Shown piece after piece: positions 12,266 through 32,741 of a stretch of DNA of 42,855 nt. The DNA is from a virus, in UHGV virus genome UHGV-0159603; one strand, 5' to 3'. Made by a program: the position numbers and the translations under genes. The notes under the pieces were generated by a model that saw nothing but the letters and a program-made list of their open reading frames with translations, searched no databases and was not told the DNA's origin. How positions within the stretch are numbered: the stretch's first letter is position 1; each line of letters begins with the position of its first letter.

Positions 12266-12596
12266 ATCAGCAGCAGAGCGCAAAGCCGCTCAGAGAGCCA
12301 GACAAGCTGAATCCGGTGTACGTAAGCTGGAGATTGTGCTGGATGCTCAGGAAATTGAAATGCTGGAGCGTAACTGTGCCACGCGTCGCCCCGGGCGTGC
12401 GCCTTACGAATTTGGGGAGTATATAGCGTTACTGATCCGCCAGGATGATGCACGCGTGCGCGGGCGTATAAAATCGATTAGCAGAAAACGTTGCGGTAAG
12501 TGCGGCGAGAAAGTTCCCGTTAATTCATGCCCGTGTAATGGTGACTCGCAATGCTGGGTGACTAAAGGCTGGCATGAAACTAAATTAATAGTGTGA
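12258..12596 (+). CDS. Hypothetical protein with C-terminal Cys cluster
   Basis: RKRCGKCGEKVPVNSCPCNGDSQC zinc-ribbon-like tail; ATG 12258. Confidence 0.45.
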   Translation: MAKSAAERKAAQRARQAESGVRKLEIVLDAQEIEMLERNCATRRPGRAPYEFGEYIALLIRQDDARVRGRIKSISRKRCGKCGEKVPVNSCPCNGDSQCWVTKGWHETKLIV

Positions 12597-12604
12597 CATG
12601 TCAC
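12593..12604. repeat. Perfect 12-bp palindrome GTGACATGTCAC (copy 1 of 2)
   Basis: Identical copy at 32730..32741; both lie at a gene 3-prime end just before a terminator. Confidence 0.6.
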
Positions 12605-12645
12605 GAGTAGATTATGCATGATGAATTTGATGGGTTTTGAATACT

Positions 12646-12671
12646 GCCGCCAACTATGGCGGCTTTATTTT
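12646..12671 (+). terminator. Rho-independent terminator after nin-like block
   Basis: GCCGCC-AACTAT-GGCGGC then TTTATTTT. Confidence 0.65.
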
Positions 12672-12682
12672 GCATGGTACTA

Positions 12683-12715
12683 TTACCACAACGGTAACAA
12701 TTACCAGGGTGGTTA
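12683..12715. promoter_or_regulatory. Tandem dyad sites TTACCACAACGGTAA (12683..12697) and TTACCAGGGTGGTTA (12701..12715) before terminase genes
   Basis: TTACC-N5-GGTAA family; second copy overlaps RBS/start of small terminase gene. Confidence 0.5.
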
Positions 12716-13311
12716 TGATGCCTGCTGAACCTAAAACCTATAAACGCAAATCAACGCAATTTAAGCCACTAACCGCAATGCAGGAGGCTTATTGCCAGTC
12801 ATACATCAAAACGCCTGAAAACCAGACTCAGGCAGCGATTAACGCAGGATTCTCCCCAAATACAGCGGCAGTTAAAGCCAGTGTCATGATGCGCGATGAA
12901 CGCATTCAAAAACGGATTGCCGAGTTGATGGAGGAGCGCAACAAACGAATGCGCGTCAGTGCCGATTACGTTCTCATGCGCCTGGTGGAGATCGACCAGA
13001 TGGACGTGATCGACATCCTCAACGACGATGGGAGCCTTAAGCCAATCCGCGAGTGGCCGAAAATCTGGCGCACTACGCTTAGTGGCTTTGATCTGTCATC
13101 GACCATCATGAACATGAACGAGGATTCGATAGAGACAATCCTCAAAAAAATTAAATGGCCTGACAAGGTGAAGAACCTCGAACTGATTGGTAAGCACGTC
13201 GACGTCAACGCATTCAAAGAACGCCTGGATGTTAATGTGAATGTGACAATTGCTGATCGCATAGCAGCAGCCAGGAAGCGACTCAAAGAACGTCAGGATG
13301 GCAATCAGTGA
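12715..13311 (+). CDS. Terminase small subunit
   Basis: LTAMQEAYCQSYIKTPENQTQAAINAGFSPNTAAVKAS matches small-terminase HTH pattern; start ATG 12715/12718. Confidence 0.7.
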   Translation: MMPAEPKTYKRKSTQFKPLTAMQEAYCQSYIKTPENQTQAAINAGFSPNTAAVKASVMMRDERIQKRIAELMEERNKRMRVSADYVLMRLVEIDQMDVIDILNDDGSLKPIREWPKIWRTTLSGFDLSSTIMNMNEDSIETILKKIKWPDKVKNLELIGKHVDVNAFKERLDVNVNVTIADRIAAARKRLKERQDGNQ

Positions 13312-14783
13312 CAGATGCAGCGTTATCTCCTGAAGAGCAGTTGATCGAGGATATTGCAGGGTTCACTCACGATCCGCTTGGCTATGCCCTCTATGCGTTC
13401 CCGTGGGGGGAAGATGGGACTGAACTGGCACATGCCGCCGGTCCACGTCAGTGGCAGGCTGATGCGTTCCGAGAGATACGTGATCACCTGCAGAATCCAG
13501 AGACGCGCTATCAGCCGCTTATGCTGGCACGCGCTTCGGGTCACGGTATTGGTAAATCCGCATTCATCTCAATGCTGATCAACTGGGGCATGTCCACTTG
13601 CGAGGATTGTAAGGTTGTGGTGACCGCCAACACCGACAACCAGCTACGAACGAAGACCTGGCCGGAAATTATCAAGTGGTCGAACCTTGCTATCACGAAA
13701 GACTGGTTTACCTGTACCGCTACCGCGATGTACAGCAATGACCCTGGGCACGACAAGCGGTGGCGAGCTGACGCAATCCCCTGGTCTGAGCACAACACTG
13801 AGGCATTCGCCGGATTACACAATGAGCGCAAACGCATCATCGTGGTATTCGATGAAGCGTCGAACATTGCGGATCTGGTGTGGGAAGTTGCCGAGGGTGC
13901 GCTAACGGACGAAGACACTGAGATTATCTGGGTGGCGTTCGGAAACCCTACACGTAACACCGGGCGTTTTCGCGAATGTTTCCGCAAATATAAACACCGC
14001 TGGAAAACTGCGCAGATTGACAGCCGGACGGTGGAAGGCACTAACAAACAGCAGTTGCAGAAATGGGTTGATGACTACGGGGAAGACAGCGACTTCGTTA
14101 AAATCCGTGTGCGCGGCATATTCCCTGATGCATCTGAATTGCAGTTTATCCCTACCGGCCTTACTGACGAGGCAATGAAACGGGTGGTCACCGCTGCGCA
14201 GGTTGCACATGCTCCGGTGATAATCGGTGTTGACCCGGCATATTCAGGCGTTGATGACGCGGTGATATACCTGCGGCAGGGGCTACACAGTAAGGTGCTG
14301 TGGACTGGCAACAAGACTACCGACGATCTGATTATGGCGAAGCGTATCGCTGACTTTGAAGACCAGTATCAGGCTGACGCGGTGTTCATCGACTTCGGTT
14401 ACGGAACCGGTTTGAAGTCAATCGGTGATGGCTGGGGACGTACATGGCAACTTGTTCCGTTCGGTGGTGCGTCAACTGACCCTCAGATGCTCAACAAGCG
14501 CGGGGAGATGTTCAACTCATGCAAGACATGGCTGAGGTTGGGCGGGATGCTGGATGACCAGGAAACAGCGGACGATCTGTCGGCGGCAGAGTACAAAGTT
14601 CGCGTGGACGGTAAAATCGTTATCGAACCGAAGGAAGATATCAAAGAACGACTTGGGCGTTCGCCTGGTAAAGGAGATGCGCTACTGCTGACGTTTGCTT
14701 TCCCGGTGTCAAAGCGCCTGCGACTTCCCGGGCAGCAGAACCAGCAAGGCAAGGCGCTTACCGAGTACGATCCATATGCTTAG
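13308..14783 (+). CDS. Terminase large subunit
   Basis: Walker A-like SGHGIGKS, ATPase plus nuclease domain architecture, 491 aa. Confidence 0.85.
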   Translation: MTDAALSPEEQLIEDIAGFTHDPLGYALYAFPWGEDGTELAHAAGPRQWQADAFREIRDHLQNPETRYQPLMLARASGHGIGKSAFISMLINWGMSTCEDCKVVVTANTDNQLRTKTWPEIIKWSNLAITKDWFTCTATAMYSNDPGHDKRWRADAIPWSEHNTEAFAGLHNERKRIIVVFDEASNIADLVWEVAEGALTDEDTEIIWVAFGNPTRNTGRFRECFRKYKHRWKTAQIDSRTVEGTNKQQLQKWVDDYGEDSDFVKIRVRGIFPDASELQFIPTGLTDEAMKRVVTAAQVAHAPVIIGVDPAYSGVDDAVIYLRQGLHSKVLWTGNKTTDDLIMAKRIADFEDQYQADAVFIDFGYGTGLKSIGDGWGRTWQLVPFGGASTDPQMLNKRGEMFNSCKTWLRLGGMLDDQETADDLSAAEYKVRVDGKIVIEPKEDIKERLGRSPGKGDALLLTFAFPVSKRLRLPGQQNQQGKALTEYDPYA

Positions 14784-15598
14784 TCTTTATTTTTATCCTC
14801 GAAACCTGATAATCCAGATAGAACACCAAAGTTATTAAAAACGTTTGGCTTACCAGATTTTAATCCGGATAAGTTGTGTTGCTCCAAAAAGTTGCTAATT
14901 GTTTGGCCGTTGCCAAGTGCAAGGCTTTTTATTTGAGATTTTTCAGGGTATTTGAGTTTGTATTCGTCGAAATCATTTTGGAGGGTCTTATATGCCTCAT
15001 TCATTCTTCCAAGAGTTTCCGATATCTCTTTTAATGAATGATTTAGAGCTGCTAACTGAGCACTGGCGGATCTCAATTCGTCATCTTTAGCTTTCAACTC
15101 GGCAGTCAATTCCCCCATACTATTCTTTGATCGAATAATCTCTTCTTTCATCTCTTGGATGTCTTTTTCCGCGCCAGTCTTAACTTTGTCGTATGTAACA
15201 TCTTTTTTAGCCAATAACCTCTGCAGTCTTGTTTCACGCTGGATTTTTCTTGCCTTCAGGTGATTTTCGATTGAGTCATTATTATCAAGAGGCTTTGCTT
15301 GCCATACGTTAATGATATTGTTTACCCATGGTAATAGGCAGCAGATAGCAATTACAGATAAGCATGGATAAAACATAACAGTTTTCCATGTGCTGTTATC
15401 TGAGATATATGAAATTTTATCTATTATGTTTGATTTGCTAAAAAATAGATAAAGAATTGATTTCCAGTTGAAGGCGCACCAGGACATAACAAAAGCACCA
15501 AGCACAGGGTTTTTGGCTCGATTCACGGCAGTATTGGCAGTAGATAAAAACAGCTCTTTGAACGATTCAAACATGCTAATTACCTTGAAGTTTTTCAT
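14780..15598 (-). CDS. AT-rich moron: membrane protein with N-terminal TM helices and C-terminal coiled coil, unknown function
   Basis: Opposite strand to flanking late genes, about 37% GC, own terminator upstream and dyad site at RBS; ATG 15598. Confidence 0.6.
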   Translation of the reverse strand: MKNFKVISMFESFKELFLSTANTAVNRAKNPVLGAFVMSWCAFNWKSILYLFFSKSNIIDKISYISDNSTWKTVMFYPCLSVIAICCLLPWVNNIINVWQAKPLDNNDSIENHLKARKIQRETRLQRLLAKKDVTYDKVKTGAEKDIQEMKEEIIRSKNSMGELTAELKAKDDELRSASAQLAALNHSLKEISETLGRMNEAYKTLQNDFDEYKLKYPEKSQIKSLALGNGQTISNFLEQHNLSGLKSGKPNVFNNFGVLSGLSGFEDKNKD

Positions 15599-15602
15599 GA
15601 TT

Positions 15603-15617
15603 ATACCTTTAAGGTAA
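15603..15617. promoter_or_regulatory. Dyad site ATACC-TTTAA-GGTAA overlapping the moron RBS
   Basis: TTACC-N5-GGTAA family; 5 nt upstream of ATG 15598. Confidence 0.45.
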
Positions 15618-15631
15618 TTTGCGGTCATCAA

Positions 15632-15657
15632 GCAAAAAAATGCCCGGCGAACCGGGC
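15632..15657 (-). terminator. Rho-independent terminator downstream of tRNA
   Basis: GCCCGG-TTCG-CCGGGC followed by T7 run on minus strand. Confidence 0.65.
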
Positions 15658-15820
15658 GAACTGGAAGCAATGAGTTATGCCTTCCGTGGCTGCACGGGTT
15701 TACAGCATGAAGTCATCGCAATGGCGTCCTGCTGTAAAAAGGGCGGTGATAGTCCTTCAAGGGAAACTATCACCGCCAAGCACCTGGAACTTCTGGCATC
15801 ACGGTCCTTAGGCGTGATTC

Positions 15821-15897
15821 TGGCGTGGTATGCAGGATTCGAACCTGCGACCAACCGCTTAGAAGGCGGTTGCTCTGTCCAACTGAGCTAATGCCAC
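15821..15897 (-). tRNA. tRNA-Arg (anticodon UCU), phage-encoded
   Basis: Minus-strand cloverleaf: D-arm GCTCAGTTGGACAGAGC, anticodon loop CTTCTAA, T-arm GCAGGTTCGAATCCTGC, 3-prime CCA encoded; one C-A mismatch in acceptor stem. Confidence 0.8.
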
Positions 15898-16219
15898 AAC
15901 GCTGAGAGCACTTAGCCTGTTAAGGCGCCACACTTTGTCGCGGCTCCATAAATGCTCTCATCGTTGTACCCTCGTCTCTTCCGAGGCGTCACACCAAATC
16001 GCCGGGATGGTGAATCCCCGTGCGCGGAATAAAACCGCTCGACTTGCACATTCCGGCTACCTGGTTCGTTTGCCCGAGCAAGGGAGGGTGCCCCTTAAAC
16101 GTATCCAGACCGCTATCGTCGCATGTGCCATACGCCGTACTGCTCAAAATAAAAGCTCACTCCACCTGTTCAATTTAACGACAAGCCAGTCAGGTTAATA
16201 ACCGGAATGAACCCTTTAC

Positions 16220-16234
16220 TTACCTGAAAGGTAA
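16220..16234. promoter_or_regulatory. Dyad site TTACCTGAAAGGTAA upstream of head-gene operon
   Basis: TTACC-N5-GGTAA family, about 90 bp upstream of ATG 16325. Confidence 0.45.
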
Positions 16235-16324
16235 TAATTTGTGCGTTAAATGTCAACTATCTACGATAAATAAATCATATGTGGTTAAATTGGTAATGAT
16301 TTAATTGCGTACGGAGTCATTGAT

Positions 16325-16531
16325 ATGTGCATGGGTAGCTCACCATCAGTGCCTGCAACACCAGAAGTTCAGGCAGCACCACAGGAGCAGGATGCCGCCG
16401 TTGTTGATGCCCGCGACGAAGAAACACGTCGCCGTCGCGCTGCTGCTGGTCGTAGTTCTACGCTGCTTACCGGTTCTCAGGGCGACACATCAACCGCTAA
16501 TACCAGCGGTAAAACGCTGCTTGGTCAGTAA
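16325..16531 (+). CDS. Small low-complexity hypothetical protein preceding portal gene
   Basis: RBS context GGAGTCATTGA repeated before this ORF and before the portal gene. Confidence 0.4.
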   Translation: MCMGSSPSVPATPEVQAAPQEQDAAVVDARDEETRRRRAAAGRSSTLLTGSQGDTSTANTSGKTLLGQ

Positions 16532-16545
16532 CCGGAGTCATTGAA

Positions 16546-18225
16546 ATGGCGGAAACAACTAAAGAGCGATTGAACAAACAGTTCGCACAACTTGAAAGCG
16601 AGCGTCAGTCGTTCGAGCCGCACTGGCGCGAGTTGAGTGATTACATCAACCCGCGTGGTTCCCGCTTTCTGACTTCTGAGGTCAACCGTAACGATCGACG
16701 CAATACACGCATTATTGATTCGACCGGGACTATGGCGGCGCGCACTCTCGCCAGCGGCATGATGTCAGGCATCACAAGCCCCGCCCGTCCGTGGTTTCGC
16801 CTGGCTACGCCAGATCCTGAAATGATGGATTATGGCCCTGTTAAGTTGTGGCTTGAGGCGGTGCAGAACCGCATGAACGATATGTTCAATAAGTCGAATC
16901 TCTACCAGTCTCTTCCGCAGTTATACGGAAGCCTCGGCACATACAGCACTGGTGCAATGGCGGTGCTGGAGGATGACGAGGACATCATTCGCACAATGCC
17001 ATTCCCTATAGGCAGTTACTACCTGGCTAACTCACCTCGTGGCAGTGTGGACACCTGTTTCCGCAAGTTCTCTATGACTGTTCGTCAGCTTGTTCAGGAG
17101 TTCGGGCTAAATAACGTCAGCGAATCCGTAAAAAGCATGTGGGAAAGCGGCACCTACGAGAAGTGGATTGAAGTGATGCATTCGGTTTACCCGAACATTG
17201 ACCGCGATACATCGAAGCTGGATAGCAAGAACAAGCCATTCAAATCGGTTTATTACGAGGTTGGTGGCGATAACGACAAGTTGTTGCGTGAGTCCGGATT
17301 CGATGAGTTTCCAATTATGGCTCCGCGCTGGGAAGTTAACGGCGAAGATGTTTATGGATCATCATGCCCGGGTATGCTGGCGCTTGGACCTGTTAAGGCA
17401 TTGCAGCTTCTCCAGAAGCGCAAGTCGCAGTTGATTGATAAAGCCACCAATCCGCCGATGGTTGCTCCGACTTCCCTCAAGAATCAGCGCGCCTCCCTTC
17501 TTCCTGGCGACATCACGTATATCGATCAGATTACTGGTCAGGATGGCTTCAGGCCTGCTTATCTGGTTAACCCCAGTACAGCAGATTTGGTGGCAGACAT
17601 TCAGGACACCCGTCAAATCATTAACAGCGCCTACTTTGTCGATCTGTTCATGATGTTGCAGAACATCAATACCCGCTCGATGCCTGTTGAAGCGGTAATC
17701 GAAATGAAAGAAGAAAAACTTCTGATGTTGGGGCCGGTTCTGGAGCGTCTGAACGACGAATGTCTTAATCCTCTCATTGACCGCGCTTTCTCGATGATGG
17801 TGCGTAAAAACATGCTGCCGCCACCGCCTGACGCGATGGAAGGTATGCCCCTGAAGGTCGAATACATTTCCGTCATGGCTCAGGCGCAGAAGTCTATCGG
17901 CCTGTCCAGTCTGGCGTCTACGGTCAACTTCATTGGTCAACTTGCGCAAGCGAAACCAGAAGCTCTCGACAAACTCAACGTTGATCAGGCGATCGATGCA
18001 TTCGCTGATATGTCCGGAGTGTCTCCAACCGTCATTGTTCCGCAGGAACAGGTTGAGCAGGCTCGCCAGCAACGGGCACAGCAGCAACAGCAGCAACAAA
18101 TGATGGCGATGGGGATGGCGGCGGCACAGGGTGCCAAGACGCTAAGCGAAGCTAAAACTTCGGATCCGAGTGTTTTGTCAGCTATGGCGAATGCAGTTAG
18201 TGGTCAGGGTGGGCAATCACAATGA
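16546..18225 (+). CDS. Portal (head-to-tail connector) protein, T7 gp8-like
   Basis: C-terminal QQQQQQQMMAMGMAAAQGA tail resembles T7 gp8 C-terminus; 559 aa; position after terminase. Confidence 0.7.
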   Translation: MAETTKERLNKQFAQLESERQSFEPHWRELSDYINPRGSRFLTSEVNRNDRRNTRIIDSTGTMAARTLASGMMSGITSPARPWFRLATPDPEMMDYGPVKLWLEAVQNRMNDMFNKSNLYQSLPQLYGSLGTYSTGAMAVLEDDEDIIRTMPFPIGSYYLANSPRGSVDTCFRKFSMTVRQLVQEFGLNNVSESVKSMWESGTYEKWIEVMHSVYPNIDRDTSKLDSKNKPFKSVYYEVGGDNDKLLRESGFDEFPIMAPRWEVNGEDVYGSSCPGMLALGPVKALQLLQKRKSQLIDKATNPPMVAPTSLKNQRASLLPGDITYIDQITGQDGFRPAYLVNPSTADLVADIQDTRQIINSAYFVDLFMMLQNINTRSMPVEAVIEMKEEKLLMLGPVLERLNDECLNPLIDRAFSMMVRKNMLPPPPDAMEGMPLKVEYISVMAQAQKSIGLSSLASTVNFIGQLAQAKPEALDKLNVDQAIDAFADMSGVSPTVIVPQEQVEQARQQRAQQQQQQQMMAMGMAAAQGAKTLSEAKTSDPSVLSAMANAVSGQGGQSQ

Positions 18226-18518
18226 CAGATTACGAAGACGATCAACTGAAAGAAGAAAACGCCCGTAAGCAACGTGACATGGCGCAGCGTGAAATTGATG
18301 ACATTCGCTTTGTCATGAGCAGTGAACAGGGGCGTCGCGTTGTCTGGTCGGTGCTGGAGAAAGGCCGTGTGTTTTCCGCTATCTCACCGATGGACGCTAT
18401 GGCAATGGCATTTAATGAGGGGCAACGCAATCTGGCGCTGGAACTGTTTCAACGCGTTATGGCGCATTGCCCTGAACAGTATTTGAAGATGGCCAAAGAG
18501 GCCAGTGAACAGGAGTGA
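18222..18518 (+). CDS. Hypothetical phage protein
   Basis: ATGA-coupled to portal gene. Confidence 0.45.
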   Translation: MTDYEDDQLKEENARKQRDMAQREIDDIRFVMSSEQGRRVVWSVLEKGRVFSAISPMDAMAMAFNEGQRNLALELFQRVMAHCPEQYLKMAKEASEQE

Positions 18519-18520
18519 TC

Positions 18521-19216
18521 ATGAATTTATTTGAGCGTTTGCTGTATCGCCATCTTTGCAATGAGCAACCAGTCGATGGTGGAGCAGCTCCGGCTGCGTC
18601 AGAACCGTCAGCGCCTGCAGGTGATAACCCTGCTCCAGTTGGTGATCCATCACAACAGGAAGGTGATAAGCCACAACCTGTTGCTGATGGCGATAAACCT
18701 GCTGATGACAAAAAGCCTGAAAACGATAAGCAGGATGAAAAAAAGGACGGCGATAAACCAGAGGGTGCGCCTGAGAAGTACGAGTTTCAGGCTGCCGAAG
18801 GCGTAGAGCTGGATACAGAAGCGTTGAAGGAATTCGAGCCGGTGGCGCGAGAACTTAACCTGACCAACGAGCAAGCGCAAAAGCTGGTTGATGCTTATCC
18901 GAAGATTCTGGCAGGTGTTCAGCAGCGCCAGGCAGAAGCCTGGCAGAAAACAACCGAGCAGTGGGCTGCGGATGTAAAAGCTGACAAAGAAATCGGTGGC
19001 GACAAGTTGATTTCTAACCTTAGCGTCGCACAGCGTGCGCTTGACCAGTTCGGGACACCTGAACTCAAAGAATATCTGAACACCACCGGGCTGGGTAATC
19101 ACCCTGATCTGGTCAAAACGTTCGTGAAAATCGGAAAGGCGATGTCTGAAGATGGCATGGTCACCGGTGGTAATGAAGGCCAGCGTAGTGCGGCCGAAGT
19201 GCTCTATGGCAAATAA
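18521..19216 (+). CDS. Scaffolding protein (acidic, low complexity)
   Basis: Highly acidic K/D/E/P-rich N-terminus, between portal and capsid genes; ATG 18521 after AGGAG. Confidence 0.5.
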   Translation: MNLFERLLYRHLCNEQPVDGGAAPAASEPSAPAGDNPAPVGDPSQQEGDKPQPVADGDKPADDKKPENDKQDEKKDGDKPEGAPEKYEFQAAEGVELDTEALKEFEPVARELNLTNEQAQKLVDAYPKILAGVQQRQAEAWQKTTEQWAADVKADKEIGGDKLISNLSVAQRALDQFGTPELKEYLNTTGLGNHPDLVKTFVKIGKAMSEDGMVTGGNEGQRSAAEVLYGK

Positions 19217-19230
19217 GAGAGGAAATGACA

Positions 19231-20217
19231 ATGGCTGTTAAAGGCTTAACTGCGCTAACGCTGGCTGACTGGGGTAAGCGCGTCGATCCAAACGGGAAAG
19301 TCGATAAGATTATCGAGCTTCTCGGTCAAACTAACCCGATCCTTCAGGATATGCCTTTTGTCGAAGGGAACCTTCCTACCGGACACCGAACCACCATTCG
19401 TTCTGGTTTACCTTCAGCTACCTGGCGTTTGCTGAACTATGGCGTACAGCCAAGCAAATCAACCACAGTGCAGGTAACCGATTCCGTTGGCATGCTGGAA
19501 ACCTATGCTGAAGTCGATAAGTCACTGGCTGATCTGAACGGCAATACCGCTGAATTCCGCCTGTCTGAAGACCGCGCATTTATTGAAGCGATGAATCAGC
19601 AGATGGCGCAGACGCTGTTTTATGGTGATTCCAGCGTTAACCCTCAGCAGTTTATGGGACTGTCCTCCCGCTATTCCAGCCTGTCTGCGGGTAATGCTCA
19701 GAACATCATTGATGCTGGTGGCACGGGTACAGATAACACCTCAATCTGGTTAGTGGTGTGGGGCGAAAACACCGTGCATGGCATCTTCCCGAAAGGGAAG
19801 AAGGCTGGCATCCAGATGGAAGATAAAGGCCAGGTGACACTGGAAGATGCGAATGGCGGCAAGTACGAAGGCTACCGTACCCATTACAAATGGGACAACG
19901 GACTTGCTCTGCGTGACTGGCGTTATGTTGTTCGCATTGCAAACATCGATGTCAGCAATCTTTCAGAACCTTCTTCTGCCGCAAATATTGCGAAGTTGAT
20001 GGTTAAAGCACTGCATCGCATTCCAAACCGTGGCATGGGGCGTCCAGTGTTCTACATGAACCGCACTGTAGGCCAGGCTCTTGATCTGCAATCTCTGGAG
20101 AAAACATCTCTGGCGATCAGCGTAAAAGAGACAGAAGGCGAGTGGTGGACTTCATTCCGTGGTGTACCAATCCGTGAAACTGATGCGCTTCTGGAAACAG
20201 AAGCCCGCGTGGTGTAA
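19231..20217 (+). CDS. Major capsid protein (putative)
   Basis: About 330 aa ORF directly after scaffold gene; alternative start 19225. Confidence 0.55.
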   Translation: MAVKGLTALTLADWGKRVDPNGKVDKIIELLGQTNPILQDMPFVEGNLPTGHRTTIRSGLPSATWRLLNYGVQPSKSTTVQVTDSVGMLETYAEVDKSLADLNGNTAEFRLSEDRAFIEAMNQQMAQTLFYGDSSVNPQQFMGLSSRYSSLSAGNAQNIIDAGGTGTDNTSIWLVVWGENTVHGIFPKGKKAGIQMEDKGQVTLEDANGGKYEGYRTHYKWDNGLALRDWRYVVRIANIDVSNLSEPSSAANIAKLMVKALHRIPNRGMGRPVFYMNRTVGQALDLQSLEKTSLAISVKETEGEWWTSFRGVPIRETDALLETEARVV

Positions 20218-20233
20218 CGCCTGTTATTAACCT

Positions 20234-20253
20234 GTGGGTCGTAACAGACCCAC
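20234..20253 (+). other. Hairpin GTGGGTC-GTAACA-GACCCAC immediately after capsid gene (no T-tract)
   Basis: Perfect 7-bp stem; possible RNA processing or attenuation element. Confidence 0.3.
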
Positions 20254-20268
20254 TAATGGAGAAAGAAG

Positions 20269-20706
20269 ATGATCACCGACAAACTGTTGATGTTCTCCGA
20301 AGCTCAGGCGGTTACGAATACCGCGGCTTCTACTGACGTAATCGATCTCGGTCCAATTGACGGAAAACGTCGTGATATCGGCGTGGGTTACCCGCTTGAG
20401 TTTTGGGCGCTGGTTAACACAGCCGCCGCGGCAAGCGGTGATGCAACTGTAAACATCCAGTTGCAGACGAGTGAGAATAACAGCTCATGGACCACTATTT
20501 ATGATAGTGGCGCACTGGCAAAGACCGCCCTGACAGCAGGTAAACGAGTTGTTTCTGCAAAGGTGCCTGCCGGTGTTCAGCGATATCTGCGTGTTAACTA
20601 CTCCGTCGCAACTGGCCCACTAACGGCTGGCGAATTCACTGCTGGTATCAGTCTTGATGTTGATGCCAATACGCCGTATCCGATCCGCTCAAAAGTAACT
20701 GGTTAA
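20269..20706 (+). CDS. Hypothetical virion protein (possible minor capsid/decoration)
   Basis: Position within head module; RBS GGAGAAAG. Confidence 0.4.
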   Translation: MITDKLLMFSEAQAVTNTAASTDVIDLGPIDGKRRDIGVGYPLEFWALVNTAAAASGDATVNIQLQTSENNSSWTTIYDSGALAKTALTAGKRVVSAKVPAGVQRYLRVNYSVATGPLTAGEFTAGISLDVDANTPYPIRSKVTG

Positions 20707-20716
20707 GGTGATATCG

Positions 20717-21052: not shown

Positions 21053-21070
21053 GCCTCGCGGATCAGACAA

Positions 21071-21090: not shown

Positions 21091-21102
21091 GCAGGAGTGT
21101 AT

Positions 21103-24502: not shown

Positions 24503-24966
24503 TGATCGATGTTCGAATTATTCCCGCCACCGAAGAGCATCTTCAGATGATTTTGCCGGATGTTCGTCAGGCTGATATTGACGAACTGTATGCGGTATCG
24601 CTGATGACTACCGAAGATGCGCTGCGTGTTGGTCTTCGCACTGCGACTATGGCCTGGTCAGGGTTCGCGAACGGAGAACTGGTAACCATGTTTGGTGTAT
24701 CTCCGGCGTCAATGATCGGTGGCAATGGTACGCCATGGCTGGTAGGAACCAGCCGTATTGAAAAATATCAGAAGACATTTCTGCGCCACTGCCGCCCTGT
24801 ATTGCAGCAGATGCTGGCAGTTTATCCGCGCCTGGAAAACTACGTCGACGAGCGAAACCATGTTGCCAAAGCATGGCTGCACTGGCTTGGATTCAGGCTT
24901 GAAGAAGCCGCGCCTTATGGTGCTCTTGGTCTTAATTTCCACAGATTTCACATGGAGAGAAAATAA
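24502..24966 (+). CDS. Hypothetical virion protein (gp13-like position)
   Basis: Translationally coupled within tail/ejection block. Confidence 0.4.
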   Translation: MIDVRIIPATEEHLQMILPDVRQADIDELYAVSLMTTEDALRVGLRTATMAWSGFANGELVTMFGVSPASMIGGNGTPWLVGTSRIEKYQKTFLRHCRPVLQQMLAVYPRLENYVDERNHVAKAWLHWLGFRLEEAAPYGALGLNFHRFHMERK

Positions 24967-25511
24967 TGTGCGATCCGGTTATTGCTGGTGGCGCAATGCT
25001 CGCCATGAGTGGCATTCAGGCATACACCCAGTACCAACAGGGAAAGTATGCCTCGAAGGTTGCAGAAGCGAACGCAGATATAGCCACAGCTCAGGCAAAT
25101 GATGCAATAAACAGAGGTAACGCTGAAGCTGAGCAACGACGCAGAGAGACCCGACAGCGGCTTGGTACACAGGCGGCGACAATGGGGGCTACCGGCGCTG
25201 ATTTATCTACAGGTAACGCGCTGGATATATTTGGCGACACTGCCCAGTTTGGCGCTCTTGATTCGCTGACGACGGTGAATAACGCGCAACGCGAGGCTTA
25301 CGGTTATCAGGTTCAGGCTGCCAACTATAAAGCAGAAGCCAGTTCAGCCCGTAAACAGGGGAATGTGGGAGCAGCAACAACATTGCTCACTGCGCCTCTG
25401 AAGGCATACGGTGCGTACCAGATGTTTGGTGGGACGTGGAGTCCGTTTACTCAAAGCACTCCTGCGCCAATCGGGGCAGCAGCAGGAACCAGATTACCCG
25501 GAGGATTATAA
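24966..25511 (+). CDS. Internal virion protein (gp14-like position)
   Basis: Ala/Gly/Gln-rich 181 aa protein before large ejection proteins. Confidence 0.4.
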   Translation: MCDPVIAGGAMLAMSGIQAYTQYQQGKYASKVAEANADIATAQANDAINRGNAEAEQRRRETRQRLGTQAATMGATGADLSTGNALDIFGDTAQFGALDSLTTVNNAQREAYGYQVQAANYKAEASSARKQGNVGAATTLLTAPLKAYGAYQMFGGTWSPFTQSTPAPIGAAAGTRLPGGL

Positions 25512-28024
25512 TGCCAGTCGTACCAACAGTATCCGGACGTCAGGTTGAGAGTCGTGGAGTTCAGTCAGCAGGCTTGCAGACGTTTTCTCAGCCAGGTATT
25601 GGTGATGCTTTTGTTCGGGCAGGGGAAGAGGCAATTGATGTTTTTGGTCAGGCAAAACAGCGTGCCAATATCGCTCTGGCTCAGGAGGCATCTCTTAACC
25701 TCAGTCAGATAAGCAGCGATTTGCTGAATAACCCTGAAACAGGTTTGCTTAACCTGAAAGGGAAAAATGCTATTGGAAAAGGTCAGGAGTATACGCAGCA
25801 GTTTGATGCCCAGGTCGAGCAACTGGCTATGTCGCTGCCGGATGAACAGGCTCGTAATGCTTTCATGCAGCAGGCGCAGCAGCAGCGCATTCAGTTCACT
25901 ACACAGGCCGGGCGGCACGAGATAGGGCAAATAAATGCATACGAAGAAGGCCAGTTTCAGGCTACGCTGCTGAACAATGGTAAAAATGCCGCAGCATTGT
26001 ATGGCGACAACGCCGCATACGTATTGGCTAATAAGCAAACTTTCCAGCAAATTGAGGATTACGGCATTGCGCATGGCTGGAGCGACGAGCAAATCCAGGC
26101 CAAGAAAGTCGAGTTTAAAGAGAAGGTTGCTGATGCTGCATTGTCACAGTGGTCGGCAAACAATGCGACCGCATTCATCCAAAGTAATGGCGAATTAAGT
26201 GATACTGCTTCTGGAGCTCGCCGTGCTGTAGCAGATAGTGGCTCTTCCGAGCGTGTCCGTGGCATACGCAACAATAACCCCGGAAATCTCGAATACAGCA
26301 AAACTAATCCGTGGGTAGGCCAGACCGGTGATGATGGTAGATTTGCTAAATTCGAAACACCTGAACACGGGATTCGTGCATTAGGGCGGAACCTGATGTC
26401 GTATCAGCGGCAGGGTATTGATACCGTCAGCGAGATAATTAATCGCTGGGCACCGCCTACTGATAAAAATGACACTATGTCGTATATCAAAGCAGTGTGC
26501 GAACAACTTGGCGTTTCTGCTGATGAGCCTCTCGATGCATCAAATCCTGATACCCTGAAGGCGCTTTGTGCAGCCATTATCCATCATGAGAACGGTAGCC
26601 AGCCATACAGTGATCAGCAGTTAACTGCTGGTGTCAGTGCAGCACTTGGTTTATCAACAATTCCAACCAACACCAAACGCTATACCGGTAATGCAGCATT
26701 CGATGCGGCATCTCCTGAGGCTCAGGCAAGTTTTATGCGGCAGGCGGATCAACTGCGTCGGCAGCAGCAGGCTGAATATAAAACGATGATTGACAGCCAG
26801 GTTCGCGATGCGACGGCTGCGTATATGCGTGGCGTTGAATTTCCTAACCCACCTAGTGAGGATGATTTTATTGCAGCTTATGGAGTCAGAGAAGGAAACC
26901 TGCGATATACCGAGTTTAAGAATACGCAGATCGCCGGACAGTATATAGGCTCTTTCCGCAACATGCCGACAAGCAGCATTACAGCATATGTTGAGCAATT
27001 ACGCCCGGATACTGGTGATACAGGGGAGGGGTATGCGGCACGCGCAGCTCTTTATGACAACGTTGTTTCGGCTGCAAATCAGGTGATAAAGCAGCGGCAG
27101 TCGGATCCTGTGCAGTTCTCTCTTGCCTCCGGACAGGCAAAGCCTATCGACATGAGCAATAAGGATAACTTTGGACAGAGCGTTGCCTTGCGTGCCGCTC
27201 AGGTCAGTGACCTTGCTAAGTCATATGGCACTCCACTGACGTTCTTTTCCAAAGACGAGGCCAATCAGATCAGTGTTTTCTTTCGTGATGCTCCAGTTTC
27301 CCAACAGGCAGCATATCTCGATACCATCAGGCAGAGCACTGGTGGTGGGCAGGTGTATATGTCAGCACTACAGCAGATCAGTGCCAACGCTCCATCTGCT
27401 GCCGTTGCCGGGATACTGATGGATAAGCCTGGTGGTATTTTGGCAGAAAAAAACTGGTTTAATCCGGATGTTTCCGTGTCTCCTGAAACCGCTGCGCAGA
27501 CAATTCTTGCTGGCGCGGCGGCTCGTAAAGGTACTGATGATGCGAAAGGTATTCCGATGCCTAAAGATGCTGATCTTCGCCTTGAGTTTTCTGACATGGT
27601 GAAGGATGCATTTGCTGGTGACGCTCAGGGGGCATCAATGGCATACGAGATCGCAAAGGATTATTACGCTGGTGTGATGGCGAAAAAAGGCGTGGTATCA
27701 GGCGAAATTGACAATGATATCTGGAAACAGGCTGTTAACGTAGCTACAGGTGGCGTGCATGACTATAACGGAATGGGGAATGTTCTTTTGCCGTGGGGAA
27801 TGTCTGCAGAGCAATTCGATAAGCAGGTTAATCAGGCTTGGAATGAACAAGTTGTTGGCACAGGGATAAAAACACCGCCTGGTCAGTATGGTTTGCAAAG
27901 TTACGGCGATAGTCAGTACCTGGTGAAACTTGGTACTGGTTATCTGCTAAAAGATGATGGTTCTCCCGTTGTTCTTGATCTGACACAGAAGCGTCAGAGA
28001 TTCTCCGGAGATATTCCGCAATGA
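25511..28024 (+). CDS. Internal virion/ejection protein carrying conserved RNNNPGNL domain
   Basis: Size and order consistent with T7 gp15/gp16-type core proteins; ATG 25511 after GGAGGA. Confidence 0.5.
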   Translation: MPVVPTVSGRQVESRGVQSAGLQTFSQPGIGDAFVRAGEEAIDVFGQAKQRANIALAQEASLNLSQISSDLLNNPETGLLNLKGKNAIGKGQEYTQQFDAQVEQLAMSLPDEQARNAFMQQAQQQRIQFTTQAGRHEIGQINAYEEGQFQATLLNNGKNAAALYGDNAAYVLANKQTFQQIEDYGIAHGWSDEQIQAKKVEFKEKVADAALSQWSANNATAFIQSNGELSDTASGARRAVADSGSSERVRGIRNNNPGNLEYSKTNPWVGQTGDDGRFAKFETPEHGIRALGRNLMSYQRQGIDTVSEIINRWAPPTDKNDTMSYIKAVCEQLGVSADEPLDASNPDTLKALCAAIIHHENGSQPYSDQQLTAGVSAALGLSTIPTNTKRYTGNAAFDAASPEAQASFMRQADQLRRQQQAEYKTMIDSQVRDATAAYMRGVEFPNPPSEDDFIAAYGVREGNLRYTEFKNTQIAGQYIGSFRNMPTSSITAYVEQLRPDTGDTGEGYAARAALYDNVVSAANQVIKQRQSDPVQFSLASGQAKPIDMSNKDNFGQSVALRAAQVSDLAKSYGTPLTFFSKDEANQISVFFRDAPVSQQAAYLDTIRQSTGGGQVYMSALQQISANAPSAAVAGILMDKPGGILAEKNWFNPDVSVSPETAAQTILAGAAARKGTDDAKGIPMPKDADLRLEFSDMVKDAFAGDAQGASMAYEIAKDYYAGVMAKKGVVSGEIDNDIWKQAVNVATGGVHDYNGMGNVLLPWGMSAEQFDKQVNQAWNEQVVGTGIKTPPGQYGLQSYGDSQYLVKLGTGYLLKDDGSPVVLDLTQKRQRFSGDIPQ

Positions 28025-29823
28025 GTTACTTTGGCCTTAATCCAGTAAACCAGAATCAGCAGCTTGAGGAAGCAGCATCAAATCCAGTTGGCTTTAACAG
28101 CGATGTTGGTTTTTTCGACAATGCTGTAGGAGCGGCATTGTCTGGTTTGTACTCCGGGCTGGTGGCAAAGCCAGATCAGTTGCTCTGGGCAGGGATGGAT
28201 AAAATCGTATCCCCGATTGCTCAGTTTGTTAACGAAAACACCTCGCTCAATGACACTTCAGTTTCATACATTGCCGAGCAGAGAAAACTAGCAGAGCAGC
28301 AGGTTAAGCGGCTGACGCCTGATGCCGCGACAACCGGAACCGCCGGGCAGGTTCTTTATGGGTTGTTCGATATGGGCGGGCAGGCTGTTATCGGTACAAC
28401 GCTCGGTGGTCCGGTCGGAGGTGCTGCGGCGGTAACTTCGCTACAGGGTTTTTCTGAGTTTGAACGGCTGACAGCACAGGGTGTTGATTTCAGGACGGCG
28501 CAGGAAGCGGGATTAGTGCAGGGTATTACTGCTGGTGCCGGAACACTGATCCCTATGAGCCTCGGGTTACGTGCTGGTGGTGCGCTGGCGGAAGGTGTGG
28601 CGGCTCAGCTTGCGCGGACGGGTGAAAGTTCAGTGCGACGCGCCGCAGCAACAGCAGTACGTGCAACGCCAGATATTGCCTATGCCGCAGGTACAAATAT
28701 TGCGTTCGGTATGGCACAGCGTGGGCTTACTGCAAAAACGCTTCGTGATGGTGGCTATAGCGAAATGGCTAACCAGTATGATGTGTTGGATCGACAGGCA
28801 ATTGCTATTGATGCTGTTCTTGGGGTGGCGTTTGGTGGTGTCGGCAGATTTATTAACTCTCGCGGTGAGGCTACAAGCACCCCCAATTTTTCACCAGTTG
28901 ATGTCGATGCTGCACTGGCGGCGAATGCCGCTCATCATGCTGAAATTGATATTTCTCCCGGCGTGCCGATCAACGTGCTTTCGCGCAATTCTCACATTCA
29001 GGCTCTGCGAAAAGCTATGTCTGATGTTAGCCAGGGGAGACCTGTAGACGTTGCCAGCATTGTTGAGTCTGCATCTTTCAGTGAAATTCCTGGGCGCAAG
29101 AGTCTGCTGTCTCAGGCAGTTAATGAGGCTCTGTCATCTGTAGATGATGGAGTAACGGCGCGCGCTATAGAAAATCGGTTGCTTGAAGAACAGGCCGCGC
29201 AGCTTTTGCCGCGTGGAGATAGACAGGTTTACCAGTCTGAAATCGCTAATAGCCAACGAATTATTGAAAATCTCACTGAACAGCGTGCACAAATTCTTGC
29301 AGAAGAGCCAACCGGTAGCGGTAAAGCTTTGTCTCGTGCTCGATCAGATAAACAGGCCAGACTTCGCGATATTGACCAACGAATCCGGCAGGCACAAGAA
29401 CGCCTGGAATTTTCTCGTAACGCGTTGGCACCGCATGAGCCTGGCGGTCAGTTTTTTGAAGCTCGAGCAGAACTGGCTCGGAGACAGCAGGCAGAAAGTG
29501 AACTTAATGCTCAGGCTGTTTCATTCTATAAAACAGCAGAGGTCAGGACGCCAGACGAAGTAGCTCCTTTTGAGCCTGATAAAATATTGCAACAGGCAGA
29601 ACAAAAAATGATGGCGGATCAGGCAGGAGATATTGATCTGCGCATAGCTGAAGACTCGCTGCTTGAATCACCTGACATGATAATCACCGTGCTGGATGAT
29701 GATGGTAATCCACAATCGCGCAGCGCGCGTGAAGTACTGGATGAAGCGAACAGGGAAAGTGAGCAGGCAATACAGGATTCCAGCCTGTTTGATGTCGCTG
29801 TGGCGTGTTTCTTGAGAGGTTAA
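28021..29823 (+). CDS. Internal virion/ejection protein
   Basis: 600 aa, Ala/Gly-rich, translationally coupled. Confidence 0.45.
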   Translation: MSYFGLNPVNQNQQLEEAASNPVGFNSDVGFFDNAVGAALSGLYSGLVAKPDQLLWAGMDKIVSPIAQFVNENTSLNDTSVSYIAEQRKLAEQQVKRLTPDAATTGTAGQVLYGLFDMGGQAVIGTTLGGPVGGAAAVTSLQGFSEFERLTAQGVDFRTAQEAGLVQGITAGAGTLIPMSLGLRAGGALAEGVAAQLARTGESSVRRAAATAVRATPDIAYAAGTNIAFGMAQRGLTAKTLRDGGYSEMANQYDVLDRQAIAIDAVLGVAFGGVGRFINSRGEATSTPNFSPVDVDAALAANAAHHAEIDISPGVPINVLSRNSHIQALRKAMSDVSQGRPVDVASIVESASFSEIPGRKSLLSQAVNEALSSVDDGVTARAIENRLLEEQAAQLLPRGDRQVYQSEIANSQRIIENLTEQRAQILAEEPTGSGKALSRARSDKQARLRDIDQRIRQAQERLEFSRNALAPHEPGGQFFEARAELARRQQAESELNAQAVSFYKTAEVRTPDEVAPFEPDKILQQAEQKMMADQAGDIDLRIAEDSLLESPDMIITVLDDDGNPQSRSAREVLDEANRESEQAIQDSSLFDVAVACFLRG

Positions 29824-29828
29824 ATTAA

Positions 29829-32303
29829 ATGAGACAGGAATGTATACAAGCGGTCCAGCAGGCGGCGCAGCGCACGTTAACGGCGCGAGAAATACAGAAC
29901 ATTGAAGACCGCATTTATCGAAATATGCGCTCCATTGCTCGTGATGACCCGATGTCGTGGAGACAACTTTCCGAATCAGAGCGGCTATATCGTGCAGCAC
30001 AATTGGCATCTGAAGAATTACAGCGAGAAGCGGCATTAAAGAAACGTCGTGTGGCCCTCACTATAGCCGCACGTCAGAGATTGGATAAATTTATCAATAG
30101 CTATCAAGGGGCTGATGGGAAACTTGGCGCTCTTAACCGTACTATTGCTTTTAATGCAGACGGTAAATCGAATTTCCTCTCTGTGGAGTCCAGAACAAAA
30201 GCCACTCGTGATTATGCATTGAGTCAATTGCAAGAGGCATTTGAAGCAGTTGATCCTCGCTTTTTTGGCCTGTTTGAAGATGAAGCTGGCGTGCGTGACC
30301 TGGTATATGAAATGCGAGGGCAAAATACTGGCAATGCTAAAGCAAGAAAAGGTGCTAAGGCGTGGAGAGAAGTGACAGAGCTACTGCGCCGCCGGTTTAA
30401 TGATGCTGGTGGGGACATTGGCTATCTCGAAAACTGGGGGATCCCTCAACATCATTCTATGGAAAAGGTTGGGGCGGTATCAAAAGATAAATGGGTTAGC
30501 GATGTTATAGGTAAGCTGGATCGCAAATATTATACCCGAGCCGATGGACAACTGATGAACGATGCCGAGTTGTCTGCATTTCTTGGAGAGGCTTATAACA
30601 CGATCGCTACTGGTGGGCTGAATAAGCTTACTGATACTGGAATGCGAATTTCCGGCGCACGTGCTAACCGTGGTAATGCATCACGACAGATACATTTCAA
30701 AGATGCAGATTCCTATCTCCAATATCAACAACTTTATGGTGATCGCTCTCTATGGGAAATCATGGTCGGTCACCTGGAAGGTATCAGTAAAGATATTGCT
30801 CTGGTGGAAACATATGGCCCAAACCCCGATCATGTTTTCCGTTCCCTTCTTGATCAGGTGAAGGCAGAAACGGCAACAGCTAACCCGAGTAAAACCGGTA
30901 GCGTCGAGCGGCTGGCGAACAAAACAGAGAACCTGTACAACTTTATTTCCGGAAAGACACAGCCTGTTGCGAATCCTCACATCGCGCGCTGGTCTGACAA
31001 TATCAGAAACTGGCTGGTTGCCAGCAGACTCGGATCCGCGTTGCTGTCATCGTTCTCTGATCTTGGAACCATGTATCTGTCTGCGAAGGTTACCAACCTT
31101 CCAATGAACCAGTTATTCCGCAACCAGCTTGAAGCTATGGACCCAACGAACCGTATAGAACTTGCGCGGGCGCGCCGCGCTGGTCTGGCGATGGAATCTC
31201 TACTTGGCAGCGTTAACCGCTGGGCGATGGATAATATGGGGCCGTCTGTGTCTCGTTGGGCGGCAACGGCGGTAATGCGTGCCAGTGGGCTTACAGCATG
31301 GTCAGATGCGCACAAGCGCGCCTATGGCGTAACCATGATGGGAAGCCTGGGAGAAGTAGTGTCACGGACACCAGACCTTCGTAGCCTCGATGATTCTGAT
31401 TTTCGTATCCTGAAAAGCAAAGGGATTACTGACACAGACTGGAGCGTATGGAAGCTGGCGCAACAGGAGGACTGGGGGAACGGTAATAATACGATGCTGA
31501 CACCGGAAAGCATTATGCGTATCCATGATTCAGCAGTTAAACATCTTGGTGAGCCTGAACGCGTGAAATTTGAGGCAATGCGTAAACTGCTCGGTGCCGT
31601 AACTGAAGAAGTTGATATGGCTGTTATTACACCGGGCGCACGTGAACAGATGTTCGTAGGGTCTGGTCTTCAGCGTGGAACATGGAAAGGTGAATTAACG
31701 AGAAGTGTTTTCCTGTTTAAATCGTTCCCTATCTCGGTAGTTATGCGTCACTGGCATAGAGCTATGGGGATGCCGTCTGCTGGTGGGCGTGCGGCATATA
31801 TAGCAACGTTTTTAGCAAGCACAACCATGCTTGGTGCTCTTTCCATGCAGATTACTGATCTTATTAATGGGAGAAATCCAAAAGAAATGACCGGTGACAA
31901 CATGGTTAAATTCTGGATAAATGCATTTTTAAAAGGTGGTGGGGCAGGGTTGTATGGTGATTTTCTTTTCTCTGACCACACCAGGTACGGGAGCGGCGCA
32001 CTAGCGTCGATGCTTGGCCCGGTAGCTGGTCTGGTTGATGACGTAGTGAAGATTGCTCAGGGCATACCGTTAAATGCTGTGGAAGGGAAGAATGAGCAGA
32101 CTGGTGGTGATTTGGTTAAGCTTGGGAAAGGTTTGATGCCTGGTGCGAATCTCTGGTACTTGAAGGCGGCTCTCGATCACATGATCTTTAACCAGATGCA
32201 GGAGTATTTTTCACCAGGCTATTTGCGTAAAATGGAGCAACGTTCAAAGAAAGAGTTTAACCAGACATACTGGTGGCGACCTCAGGATGTCACTCCGCAA
32301 TAA
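29829..32303 (+). CDS. Internal virion/ejection protein (large)
   Basis: 824 aa, last large gene of ejection block. Confidence 0.45.
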   Translation: MRQECIQAVQQAAQRTLTAREIQNIEDRIYRNMRSIARDDPMSWRQLSESERLYRAAQLASEELQREAALKKRRVALTIAARQRLDKFINSYQGADGKLGALNRTIAFNADGKSNFLSVESRTKATRDYALSQLQEAFEAVDPRFFGLFEDEAGVRDLVYEMRGQNTGNAKARKGAKAWREVTELLRRRFNDAGGDIGYLENWGIPQHHSMEKVGAVSKDKWVSDVIGKLDRKYYTRADGQLMNDAELSAFLGEAYNTIATGGLNKLTDTGMRISGARANRGNASRQIHFKDADSYLQYQQLYGDRSLWEIMVGHLEGISKDIALVETYGPNPDHVFRSLLDQVKAETATANPSKTGSVERLANKTENLYNFISGKTQPVANPHIARWSDNIRNWLVASRLGSALLSSFSDLGTMYLSAKVTNLPMNQLFRNQLEAMDPTNRIELARARRAGLAMESLLGSVNRWAMDNMGPSVSRWAATAVMRASGLTAWSDAHKRAYGVTMMGSLGEVVSRTPDLRSLDDSDFRILKSKGITDTDWSVWKLAQQEDWGNGNNTMLTPESIMRIHDSAVKHLGEPERVKFEAMRKLLGAVTEEVDMAVITPGAREQMFVGSGLQRGTWKGELTRSVFLFKSFPISVVMRHWHRAMGMPSAGGRAAYIATFLASTTMLGALSMQITDLINGRNPKEMTGDNMVKFWINAFLKGGGAGLYGDFLFSDHTRYGSGALASMLGPVAGLVDDVVKIAQGIPLNAVEGKNEQTGGDLVKLGKGLMPGANLWYLKAALDHMIFNQMQEYFSPGYLRKMEQRSKKEFNQTYWWRPQDVTPQ

Positions 32304-32312
32304 GGAACAACA

Positions 32313-32726
32313 ATGAAGGAATTATTGCTGTTATCGGTATTTTTGATATACGCTTGCTCGACATCCTATGATGTTTATGACGGTGTTGATAAGGCATATT
32401 GCGACAAAGTTAAAATGGATTTTTCTCTTGCCAAGACGGCGAAGGATAGTTGTATTGATCACTACGTCAAGACTTATACCAAGCCAGCCTCATCGGCATC
32501 TGATATTGCTGAAGGTGCTGTGTTTGAGTGTAACAAGGTGATATCCATCGCAGCGAGTTCTTCATACGATGCTGCTGTATGTGCAATGGCTGAAAGAAAC
32601 GGCATGTCAGTGCAAAAAATTAATAGCATGATAAGCAGTAATGACGAAGCCAAAATAAGAACTGATATCAGCTCGGTGAAAAAAGATGCCATGAACAGAG
32701 TTGTAAAATATCAGTCATCTTTATAA
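32313..32726 (+). CDS. Small exported protein, possible lipoprotein
   Basis: N-terminal signal-like LLLLSVFLIYAC followed by Cys; AAGGAA RBS. Confidence 0.5.
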   Translation: MKELLLLSVFLIYACSTSYDVYDGVDKAYCDKVKMDFSLAKTAKDSCIDHYVKTYTKPASSASDIAEGAVFECNKVISIAASSSYDAAVCAMAERNGMSVQKINSMISSNDEAKIRTDISSVKKDAMNRVVKYQSSL

Positions 32727-32729
32727 GTC

Positions 32730-32741
32730 GTGACATGTCAC
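32730..32741. repeat. Perfect 12-bp palindrome GTGACATGTCAC (copy 2 of 2)
   Basis: Identical to 12593..12604; 4 nt after stop codon and 1 nt before terminator stem. Confidence 0.6.

Follow-up and report, generated by a model that had tools for sequence, protein, structure and literature searches.

The palindrome GTGACATGTCAC, a 12-bp sequence present twice in the virus genome UHGV-0159603 (42,855 nucleotides, analysed over its full length and hereafter termed the window), is almost certainly a functional element under selection. It is very probably the cognate binding site of the protein encoded by an adjacent regulator gene (12258–12596, plus strand; 112 residues, PHROG 536), which ends on one of the two copies. 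The joint reading, namely that the palindrome is the cognate site of this regulator and most likely serves to control transcription across operon boundaries, is the one we consider probable, whereas the assignment of transcriptional control at operon boundaries as the role of the site is put forward tentatively. Among the roles suggested in an earlier note on this DNA, that of a regulator site is the best supported, since the motif co-occurs with, and usually abuts, one gene across otherwise unrelated phages.

An exact-match search of the whole window returned exactly two occurrences, in agreement with the earlier description of an identical palindrome located twice at the 3′ end of a gene and ahead of a terminator. 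The first copy (TGTGACATGTCACG, 12593–12604, no strand assigned) overlaps the TGA stop codon (12594–12596) of the regulator open reading frame (ORF; 12255/12258–12596), and an intrinsic terminator (12646–12671, plus strand; stem at 12646–12663 plus a T run) follows 41 nt downstream, in the gap between the regulator gene and the terminase gene terS. This terminator is conserved in phages epsilon15 and Tyrion. The second copy (CGTGACATGTCACA, 32730–32741, likewise without strand) starts 3 nt past the TAA stop codon (32724–32726) of the last late-operon gene and directly abuts a second intrinsic terminator (32742–32769, plus strand; stem at 32742–32759 plus a T run), which belongs to a conserved island at this copy and also serves the convergent minus-strand ORF 32765–32998. 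The late-operon gene whose 3′ end abuts this copy is variable (32313–32726, plus strand; PHROG 8691) and encodes a putative lipoprotein of 137 residues with a signal peptide and a lipobox-like LIYAC motif. The sequence GTGACATGTCAC was absent from all of 100 dinucleotide-preserving shuffles of the window. Ten perfect 12-bp palindromes were counted in the window, among which this is the only repeated one, and some repeated 12-bp palindrome arose in 36 of 1500 first-order Markov simulations (p ~0.024). The significance of the repeat within the window alone is modest; what is decisive for its reality is the comparison with relatives.

In megablast searches, the window grouped with the phiV10/epsilon15-like temperate podoviruses of genus Uetakevirus, with 95–98% identity to the E. 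coli phages phiV10, PAS61, ZX5 and TL-2011b. Relatives from Escherichia, Salmonella, Enterobacter and Klebsiella carry the exact 12-mer at positions syntenic with both window copies, as had been proposed as a check of the motif. The regulator-stop copy and the post-late-gene copy are found, respectively, at 39612 and 19517 in Salmonella phage epsilon15 (~77% nucleotide identity over conserved genes), at 41755 and 20377 in Enterobacter phage Tyrion, and at 431 and 18526 in Klebsiella phage BUCT711. In phiV10, the post-late-gene copy is at 19493, and the regulator-stop copy has one mismatch (GTGACATGTTAC) and lies at the record junction. The start of the phiV10 record inside the palindrome was considered as a sign of a cos or pac site and rejected as a linearisation artefact, the record having been cut just past the stop codon of p55. 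The position at the regulator stop codon (S1) carries a site in about 75 of 80 relatives from IMG/VR.

A third copy (S2) is present in many relatives, including 49 of 80 from IMG/VR, some 2.2–2.45 kb past S1, where terL meets a convergent cargo gene on the minus strand (phiV10 2262, epsilon15 2142, Tyrion 2702); the second copy of the window corresponds to S3 in this series. The window has no S2 copy because a minus-strand cargo ORF (14780–15670; 296 residues, PHROG 4780) occupies the locus that holds S2 and its terminator in relatives, overlapping the terL stop codon by 4 nt and leaving zero intergenic space. All Uetakevirus copies share one layout when followed along the upstream gene, in which a gene stop codon (overlapping or no more than 30 nt away) is followed by the palindrome and, after 0–41 nt, by a terminator hairpin with a T run. 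These copies mark three junctions, i.e. that between the early operon and terS, that at the terL-adjacent cargo gene (not in the window) and the end of the late operon. The view that the palindromes bracket the morphogenesis module was not sustained, as relatives hold a copy inside the module, after terL.

Beyond the genus, comparison of phage genomes indicates that the motif tracks the regulator gene rather than the head–tail module. Homologues of the regulator, which include phiV10 p55, epsilon15 gp49 and N15 gp46, were retrieved by tblastn from 154 phage records of several unrelated types, and each unrelated phage type examined that has a homologue also carries GTGAC-N2-GTCAC sites. The Pectobacterium myovirus ZF40 has three exact copies of GTGACATGTCAC, one of them 2 nt past the stop codon of the homologue. 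Each of the linear-plasmid siphoviruses N15 and phiKO2 has three GTGAC-TG-GTCAC sites, which are syntenic between the two and one of which overlaps the stop codon of the homologue and abuts the Shine-Dalgarno sequence of the following gene. Three sites with centres AC, AC and GC are found in Vibrio phage K303, two of them 20–30 nt ahead of start codons, including that of terS, and a P2-like Yersinia phage has one exact AT site and a neighbouring site with one mismatch. Prophages of Aeromonas and Symbiopectobacterium carry GTGACCGGTCAC on or beside the regulator stop codon, sometimes as inverted pairs. In ZF40, N15, phiKO2 and K303, the sites are found either within genes or in regions of early or regulatory function, so the earlier framing of the palindrome as a mark of morphogenesis module boundaries does not extend to these phages.

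The regulator is the sole window ORF of at least 50 residues with homologues in all four unrelated complete genomes. Over ten regulator-bearing genomes, 27 sites of the family were counted against 0.39 expected from base composition, and lambda and P2 have no YGTGAC-N2-GTCACR site. Genomes with the regulator usually have about three sites, often with one on the regulator stop codon, and the identified hosts of these phages all belong to Enterobacterales, Vibrio or Aeromonas. The gene and one copy of the site, placed on or next to its stop codon, constitute a conserved cassette, to which each phage adds one to three copies elsewhere, and this cassette appears in at least six otherwise unrelated lineages of temperate phages of Enterobacterales, Vibrio and Aeromonas.

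Several local arrangements around the sites were recorded during this survey. In Yersinia phage vB_YenM_42.18 (8073–11728), an 872-residue 'Smc' chromosome partition gene is located between the regulator homologue and the site pair (11675 and 11708). This gene occupies the accessory-gene region of P2 and, enclosed as it is by the regulator and its sites, may have a defence function or be cargo. Viral contigs of Aeromonas type have two imperfect sites 20–60 nt past the regulator stop codon, arranged as GTGTCCGGTCAC-N6-GTGACCGGACAC, which form an inverted repeat with 14-bp arms followed by a T-rich tract; for this clade, a terminator-like hairpin could arise from the sites themselves. The conserved sites of N15 (28550 and 33237) and phiKO2 (32783 and 37663) are found in the leader of the antirepressor operon, where the site falls between the stop codon of the upstream gene and the terminator of the operon, and inside repA; these positions hint at roles in telomere-phage immunity or replication control. 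On the reverse strand of BUCT711, just past the regulator-stop palindrome, a LexA-box-like TACTGT-N8-ACAGTA is contained in a large hairpin, accompanied by a promoter-like TTGACT...TATACT element, and a small gene follows between the regulator and terS.

The composition of the site was analysed over 33 non-redundant sites. A pyrimidine precedes the half-site at its 5′ side in 64 of the 66 half-sites, and as this bias affects both halves, the element is best described as a symmetric 14-mer, YGTGAC-N2-GTCACR. The spacer comprises 2 nt in all 33 sites, and the central dinucleotide is clade-specific (AT, TG, AC/GC or CG). Since N15 (TG) and the phiV10-like phages (AT) both infect E. coli, this suggests that the reader of the site is encoded by the phage and is not a host factor. 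A restriction or methylation target was rejected, as the central dinucleotide varies and the half-sites are fixed, and binding sites for CRP, FNR and LexA were rejected on the basis of half-site spacing relative to their consensus sequences.

These data also bear on whether the element acts as DNA or RNA. The Uetakevirus sites are transcribed and lie immediately 5′ of terminator hairpins, the phiKO2/N15 site runs up to the Shine-Dalgarno sequence of the downstream gene, and the K303 sites precede start codons by 20–30 nt, all of which would suit a transcript hairpin acting as a processing site, an antiterminator of nut-like or RAT-like type, or a 3′-end stabiliser. As RNA, however, the palindrome has a folding energy of −1.2 kcal/mol (z ~0), no better than that of shuffled sequence, and sites with an asymmetric centre are found in both orientations relative to local transcription. 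Moreover, the symmetric Y...R flanks suit a dimer site on DNA, and the predicted fold of the candidate binder is of a DNA-binding type. An RNA role for the palindrome is thus unlikely, and we consider the specific RNA elements listed very unlikely. The proposed reader would instead bind the YGTGACATGTCACR duplex.

The label of PHROG 536, 'transcriptional regulator', is an annotation only, and a Pfam search assigned the 112-residue protein to no family, its ribbon-helix-helix (RHH) matches being below threshold. An alignment of 58 diverse homologues revealed a conserved N-terminal basic helix with the motif RKxxQRxR, followed by a short strand and two helices, a long helix, and invariant cysteines in the arrangement CxxC...C...C. 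As the AlphaFold2 model computed from the single sequence was poor, with a predicted local distance difference test (pLDDT) score of 44, it was replaced by a model based on the homologue alignment, which reached a mean pLDDT of 90.5. This predicted model displays the β-α-α arrangement of the RHH DNA-binding fold. In a profile search against the PDB, the C-terminal half weakly matched the zinc fingers of TraR and YbiI (E ~0.03), which hints at a DksA/TraR-like zinc module, and Foldseek searches of the model against the PDB and BFVD yielded no informative match. From the model, we conclude that the regulator is a DNA-binding protein with an RHH fold and a Cys4 zinc module, and we infer that it binds the palindrome as a dimer.

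In the mechanism that we propose, GTGACATGTCAC, extended to YGTGAC-N2-GTCACR, would be the cognate double-stranded DNA site of the 12258–12596 product, with a regulator dimer seated symmetrically on the palindrome. Once bound, the regulator would control transcription across operon boundaries, among them the junction of early and late genes ahead of terS, possibly as a roadblock or insulator, by modulating read-through at adjacent terminators, or by modulating a local promoter. Control of transcription at boundaries is the most economical proposal because all Uetakevirus copies lie just upstream of operon-end terminators. At the early-to-late junction, the palindrome of copy 1 also supplies a −35-like GTGACA, followed by a spacer of 17–18 nt, a weak −10 element (CATGAT in the window, TAAATT in epsilon15 and Tyrion) and the terminator. 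This combination is found at S1 of the Uetakeviruses only and is absent from the other copies and from ZF40.

A number of observations weigh against this proposal. In the Yersinia phage, the stop codon of the regulator lacks a site, and sites are found inside coding regions (ZF40 gp08 and gp12, N15 repA and a BUCT711 virion gene), so terminators do not accompany every site, and their proximity may in part follow from where non-coding DNA offers room. For an RHH autoregulator, it is also unusual to have a site at the 3′ end of its own gene, and the residues of the predicted β-strand gave no simple mapping onto the central dinucleotide. Furthermore, a Q-like antiterminator is separately encoded in ZF40, N15 and phiKO2, which argues that the regulator is not a general late switch.

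Part of the same evidence is open to an explanation based on recombination. Near copy 2, the window ceases to be homologous to phiV10, epsilon15 and Tyrion at 32306, and homology resumes exactly at 32729, 1 nt before the palindrome, but the resumed homology spans just 40–59 bp, comprising the palindrome and the terminator, and then ends again. The 32313–32726 gene is replaced by unrelated small genes in phiV10 (p21), epsilon15 (gp18) and Tyrion (gp19), and near terL, the palindrome of relatives is approached to within 4–5 nt by the ends of at least seven unrelated minus-strand cargo genes, mostly via the same TAA-CACC junction. The island of palindrome and terminator hence appears to anchor hot spots of cargo (moron) genes, which may be either a cause or a consequence of its conservation. 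The suggestion of the earlier note that the palindrome is a module-junction sequence stands insofar as mosaic breakpoints coincide with it, both at 32729 and at the cargo ends near S2; the part that had it bracket the morphogenesis module does not. If the island were conserved through the exchange of cargo genes itself, either passively, as a homology patch for the RecE/RecT-like recombinase of the phage, or actively, these breakpoints would be accounted for, and the phage family does encode RecE/RecT-type proteins. Such an anchor is compatible with protein binding and not mutually exclusive with it. As the explanation of the palindrome we nonetheless consider it quite unlikely, given that 12 bases alone are too short for homologous recombination, and that it explains neither the same 12-mer at three loci and in unrelated phages, nor the copies inside conserved genes such as N15 repA and ZF40 gp12, nor the regulator-stop copy and the clade-specific central dinucleotide.

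Features of the sites also argue against packaging and host-factor roles. Copy 1 is ~120 bp upstream of terS and one K303 site is ~20 nt upstream of this gene, as might be expected of a pac or terminase recognition site, yet there are two to four identical copies per genome, up to 20 kb apart, and they also occur in N15, whose record shows 12-nt cohesive ends and which has a different terminase, and in the P2-like Yersinia phage, which has P2-type terminase genes. With several copies in genomes of differing packaging type and a site that follows the regulator gene instead of the terminase, the pac role once suggested for the palindrome was rejected as barely credible. Binding by host MatP or another host factor would explain why the half-sites are the same as those of matS, but the spacing is always N2 and never the N3 of matS, the centre differs among phages of one host species, the site strictly co-occurs with a phage gene, and prophages are reported to avoid matS (PMC3603311). 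We therefore hold a host reader to be highly improbable.

The closest known counterpart of the site itself is matS, a 13-bp pattern, GTGAC[AG]N[TC]GTCAC, with the E. coli consensus GTGACATTGTCAC (PMC3603311, PMC8669397), which is reported to be lacking from Escherichia and Salmonella prophages (PMC3603311). The two share the half-sites GTGAC/GTCAC, the phage site corresponding to GTGACATTGTCAC minus one central base, and in both cases the sites are few and dispersed and do not form operator clusters. MatP also uses an RHH domain, the likeness to the regulator being at the structural level of this fold only. In contrast, the phage site is 12 bp long (N2) in all 33 cases and matS is 13 bp long (RNY), and no 13-mer matS is present in the window or in N15. 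Comparison by hhalign of the regulator family profile with E. coli MatP, for which the MatP sequence was checked against PDB 4d8j, gave a probability of 0.6% and an E value of 0.1, so no significant homology was detected. The regulator model has neither the four-helix bundle nor the C-terminal coiled coil, and consists of one N-terminal helix, the RHH and the Cys4 zinc module. Finally, the reader is phage-encoded, with one site joined to the stop codon of its own gene. On the grounds of spacing, homology and domain architecture, the regulator and its site are not members of the MatP/matS system.

An architectural role of MatP/matS type is a separate matter. Here, the phage protein would bridge the ~3 sites per genome or organise phage DNA, maybe in contact with host Ter-macrodomain or MukBEF functions, instead of regulating transcription. 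Enterobacterales, Vibrio and Aeromonas, which comprise all hosts identified, have MatP, and the ~3 dispersed sites in most lineages and the resemblance of each to a matS consensus short of one central base would fit. The host range may, however, just mirror phage relatedness, and together with the hhalign probability below 1%, a zinc module in place of the bundle and coiled coil, and not one of 33 sites with 13-bp spacing, this renders the role improbable. Taken more broadly, the PHROG 536 protein and its ~3 sites could be either a phage analogue of MatP/matS, acting by looping and bridging or by interference with MatP/MukBEF, or a new DNA-tethered factor of terminator efficiency, including an epsilon15-like early-to-late switch; we consider this unlikely. 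As speculation, the one-base offset may keep the phage sites orthogonal to MatP.

Cognate binding by the regulator is better placed among the RHH repressor–operator pairs of phages and plasmids, such as P22 Arc/Mnt, CopG, AmrZ and the type II antitoxins TacA and ParD, with which it shares the predicted β-α-α fold, a short symmetric site and a small phage-borne protein. Classical RHH operators overlap the promoter of their own operon, whereas here the site is at gene 3′ ends, on or after the regulator stop codon in Uetakeviruses, ZF40, N15, phiKO2 and Aeromonas prophages. The regulator further differs in its conserved N-terminal basic helix and C-terminal zinc module and in having no partner toxin. 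We classify it with its site as an RHH regulator–operator pair with unusual traits, i.e. the zinc module, a site joined to its own stop codon and matS-like half-sites. A resemblance to lambda Q/tR′ is confined to copy 1, where the last early-right gene, a DNA site, a promoter-like element, a terminator and the late genes follow one another. Pfam and PDB searches gave no match of the regulator to Q proteins, ZF40, N15 and phiKO2 have Q-like genes besides the regulator, and antitermination would serve little purpose at the remaining copies, which are found at operon ends or within genes. The boundary ('linker') sequences of lambdoid mosaics and moron terminators are likewise short conserved islands exactly at breakpoints flanking cargo, but in the present case one exact sequence recurs, both at several loci and across unrelated phages, and co-varies with a specific protein gene.

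As to the wider context of the window, its right flank (40300–42855) corresponds to the E. coli host genes yfgI, yfgH, pdeF and yfgG, and the presence of yfgI-yfgH-pdeF identifies the window as an integrated E. coli prophage. A guaA-proximal integration site is reported for phage ZX5 (PMC9782041), and the flank is consistent with integration of this type. The head–tail genes, referred to earlier as a T7-like module, are of the epsilon15/phiV10 (Uetakevirus) type, to which the term T7-like applies only loosely. The genes terS and terL (12715–14783, plus strand), identified by a Terminase_2 Pfam match and by the phiV10/epsilon15 annotation, head the late genes that follow S1 and its terminator; in annotated relatives, the terminase is compared to P1 PacB and Sf6 gp2. 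The terS start annotated in phiV10 is a TTG, with which the coding sequence would take in the terminator hairpin and operator repeats (12637–12718). The Terminase_2 match starts at residue 19 of the shorter protein that an ATG at 12715 or 12718 would give, which makes such a start more plausible, and 12715 was retained as the probable one.

These operator repeats are part of a series of TTACC-N5-GGTAA inverted repeats, which are labelled 'repressor' operators in the epsilon15 record and are found in the window at 5688, 5750, 6462, 8793, 8855, 12683, 12700, 16220, 34121 and 35188, i.e. around the repressor/cro region, ahead of the gp3-like gene and within the antirepressor/tailspike region. Two of them lie in tandem directly upstream of terS and overlap its ribosome-binding region. 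Given this placement, the prophage repressor may act directly on late transcription units. Between terL and the portal-proximal genes, the variable cargo region includes a minus-strand tRNA-Arg (anticodon TCT, 15821–15897), adjoined by two minus-strand terminator-like hairpins (15777–15742 and 15657–15642). Past copy 2 and its terminator are two convergent minus-strand cargo ORFs, of which 32765–32998 encodes a 77-residue 'membrane associated protein' moron (PHROG 3117/14503) and 33019–33885 a protein of 288 residues (PHROG 3630). This region is not homologous to its phiV10 counterpart, save for a short stretch after the terminator (to 32787).

A literature search found no mention of the 12-mer, although it did not cover the original epsilon15 and phiV10 papers, in which a prior mention is possible, and it returned nothing relevant on Uetakevirus late regulation or N15 gp46. 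The epsilon15 RefSeq record annotates many protein-binding sites, none of them at the coordinates of the palindrome. The late switch and the insulation of operons in epsilon15/phiV10-like phages, which include serotype-converting and O157-typing phages, have not yet been worked out, and the regulator with its cis-element provides a concrete candidate. The palindrome also marks hot spots of cargo (moron) gene exchange in these genomes. Its near-identity to matS, at one base of spacing, raises the question of common ancestry or convergence of the phage and host systems, and if the offset hides the sites from MatP, this would fit the reported lack of matS in prophages. More generally, the assignment of one role would annotate a widespread family of 'hypothetical proteins'.

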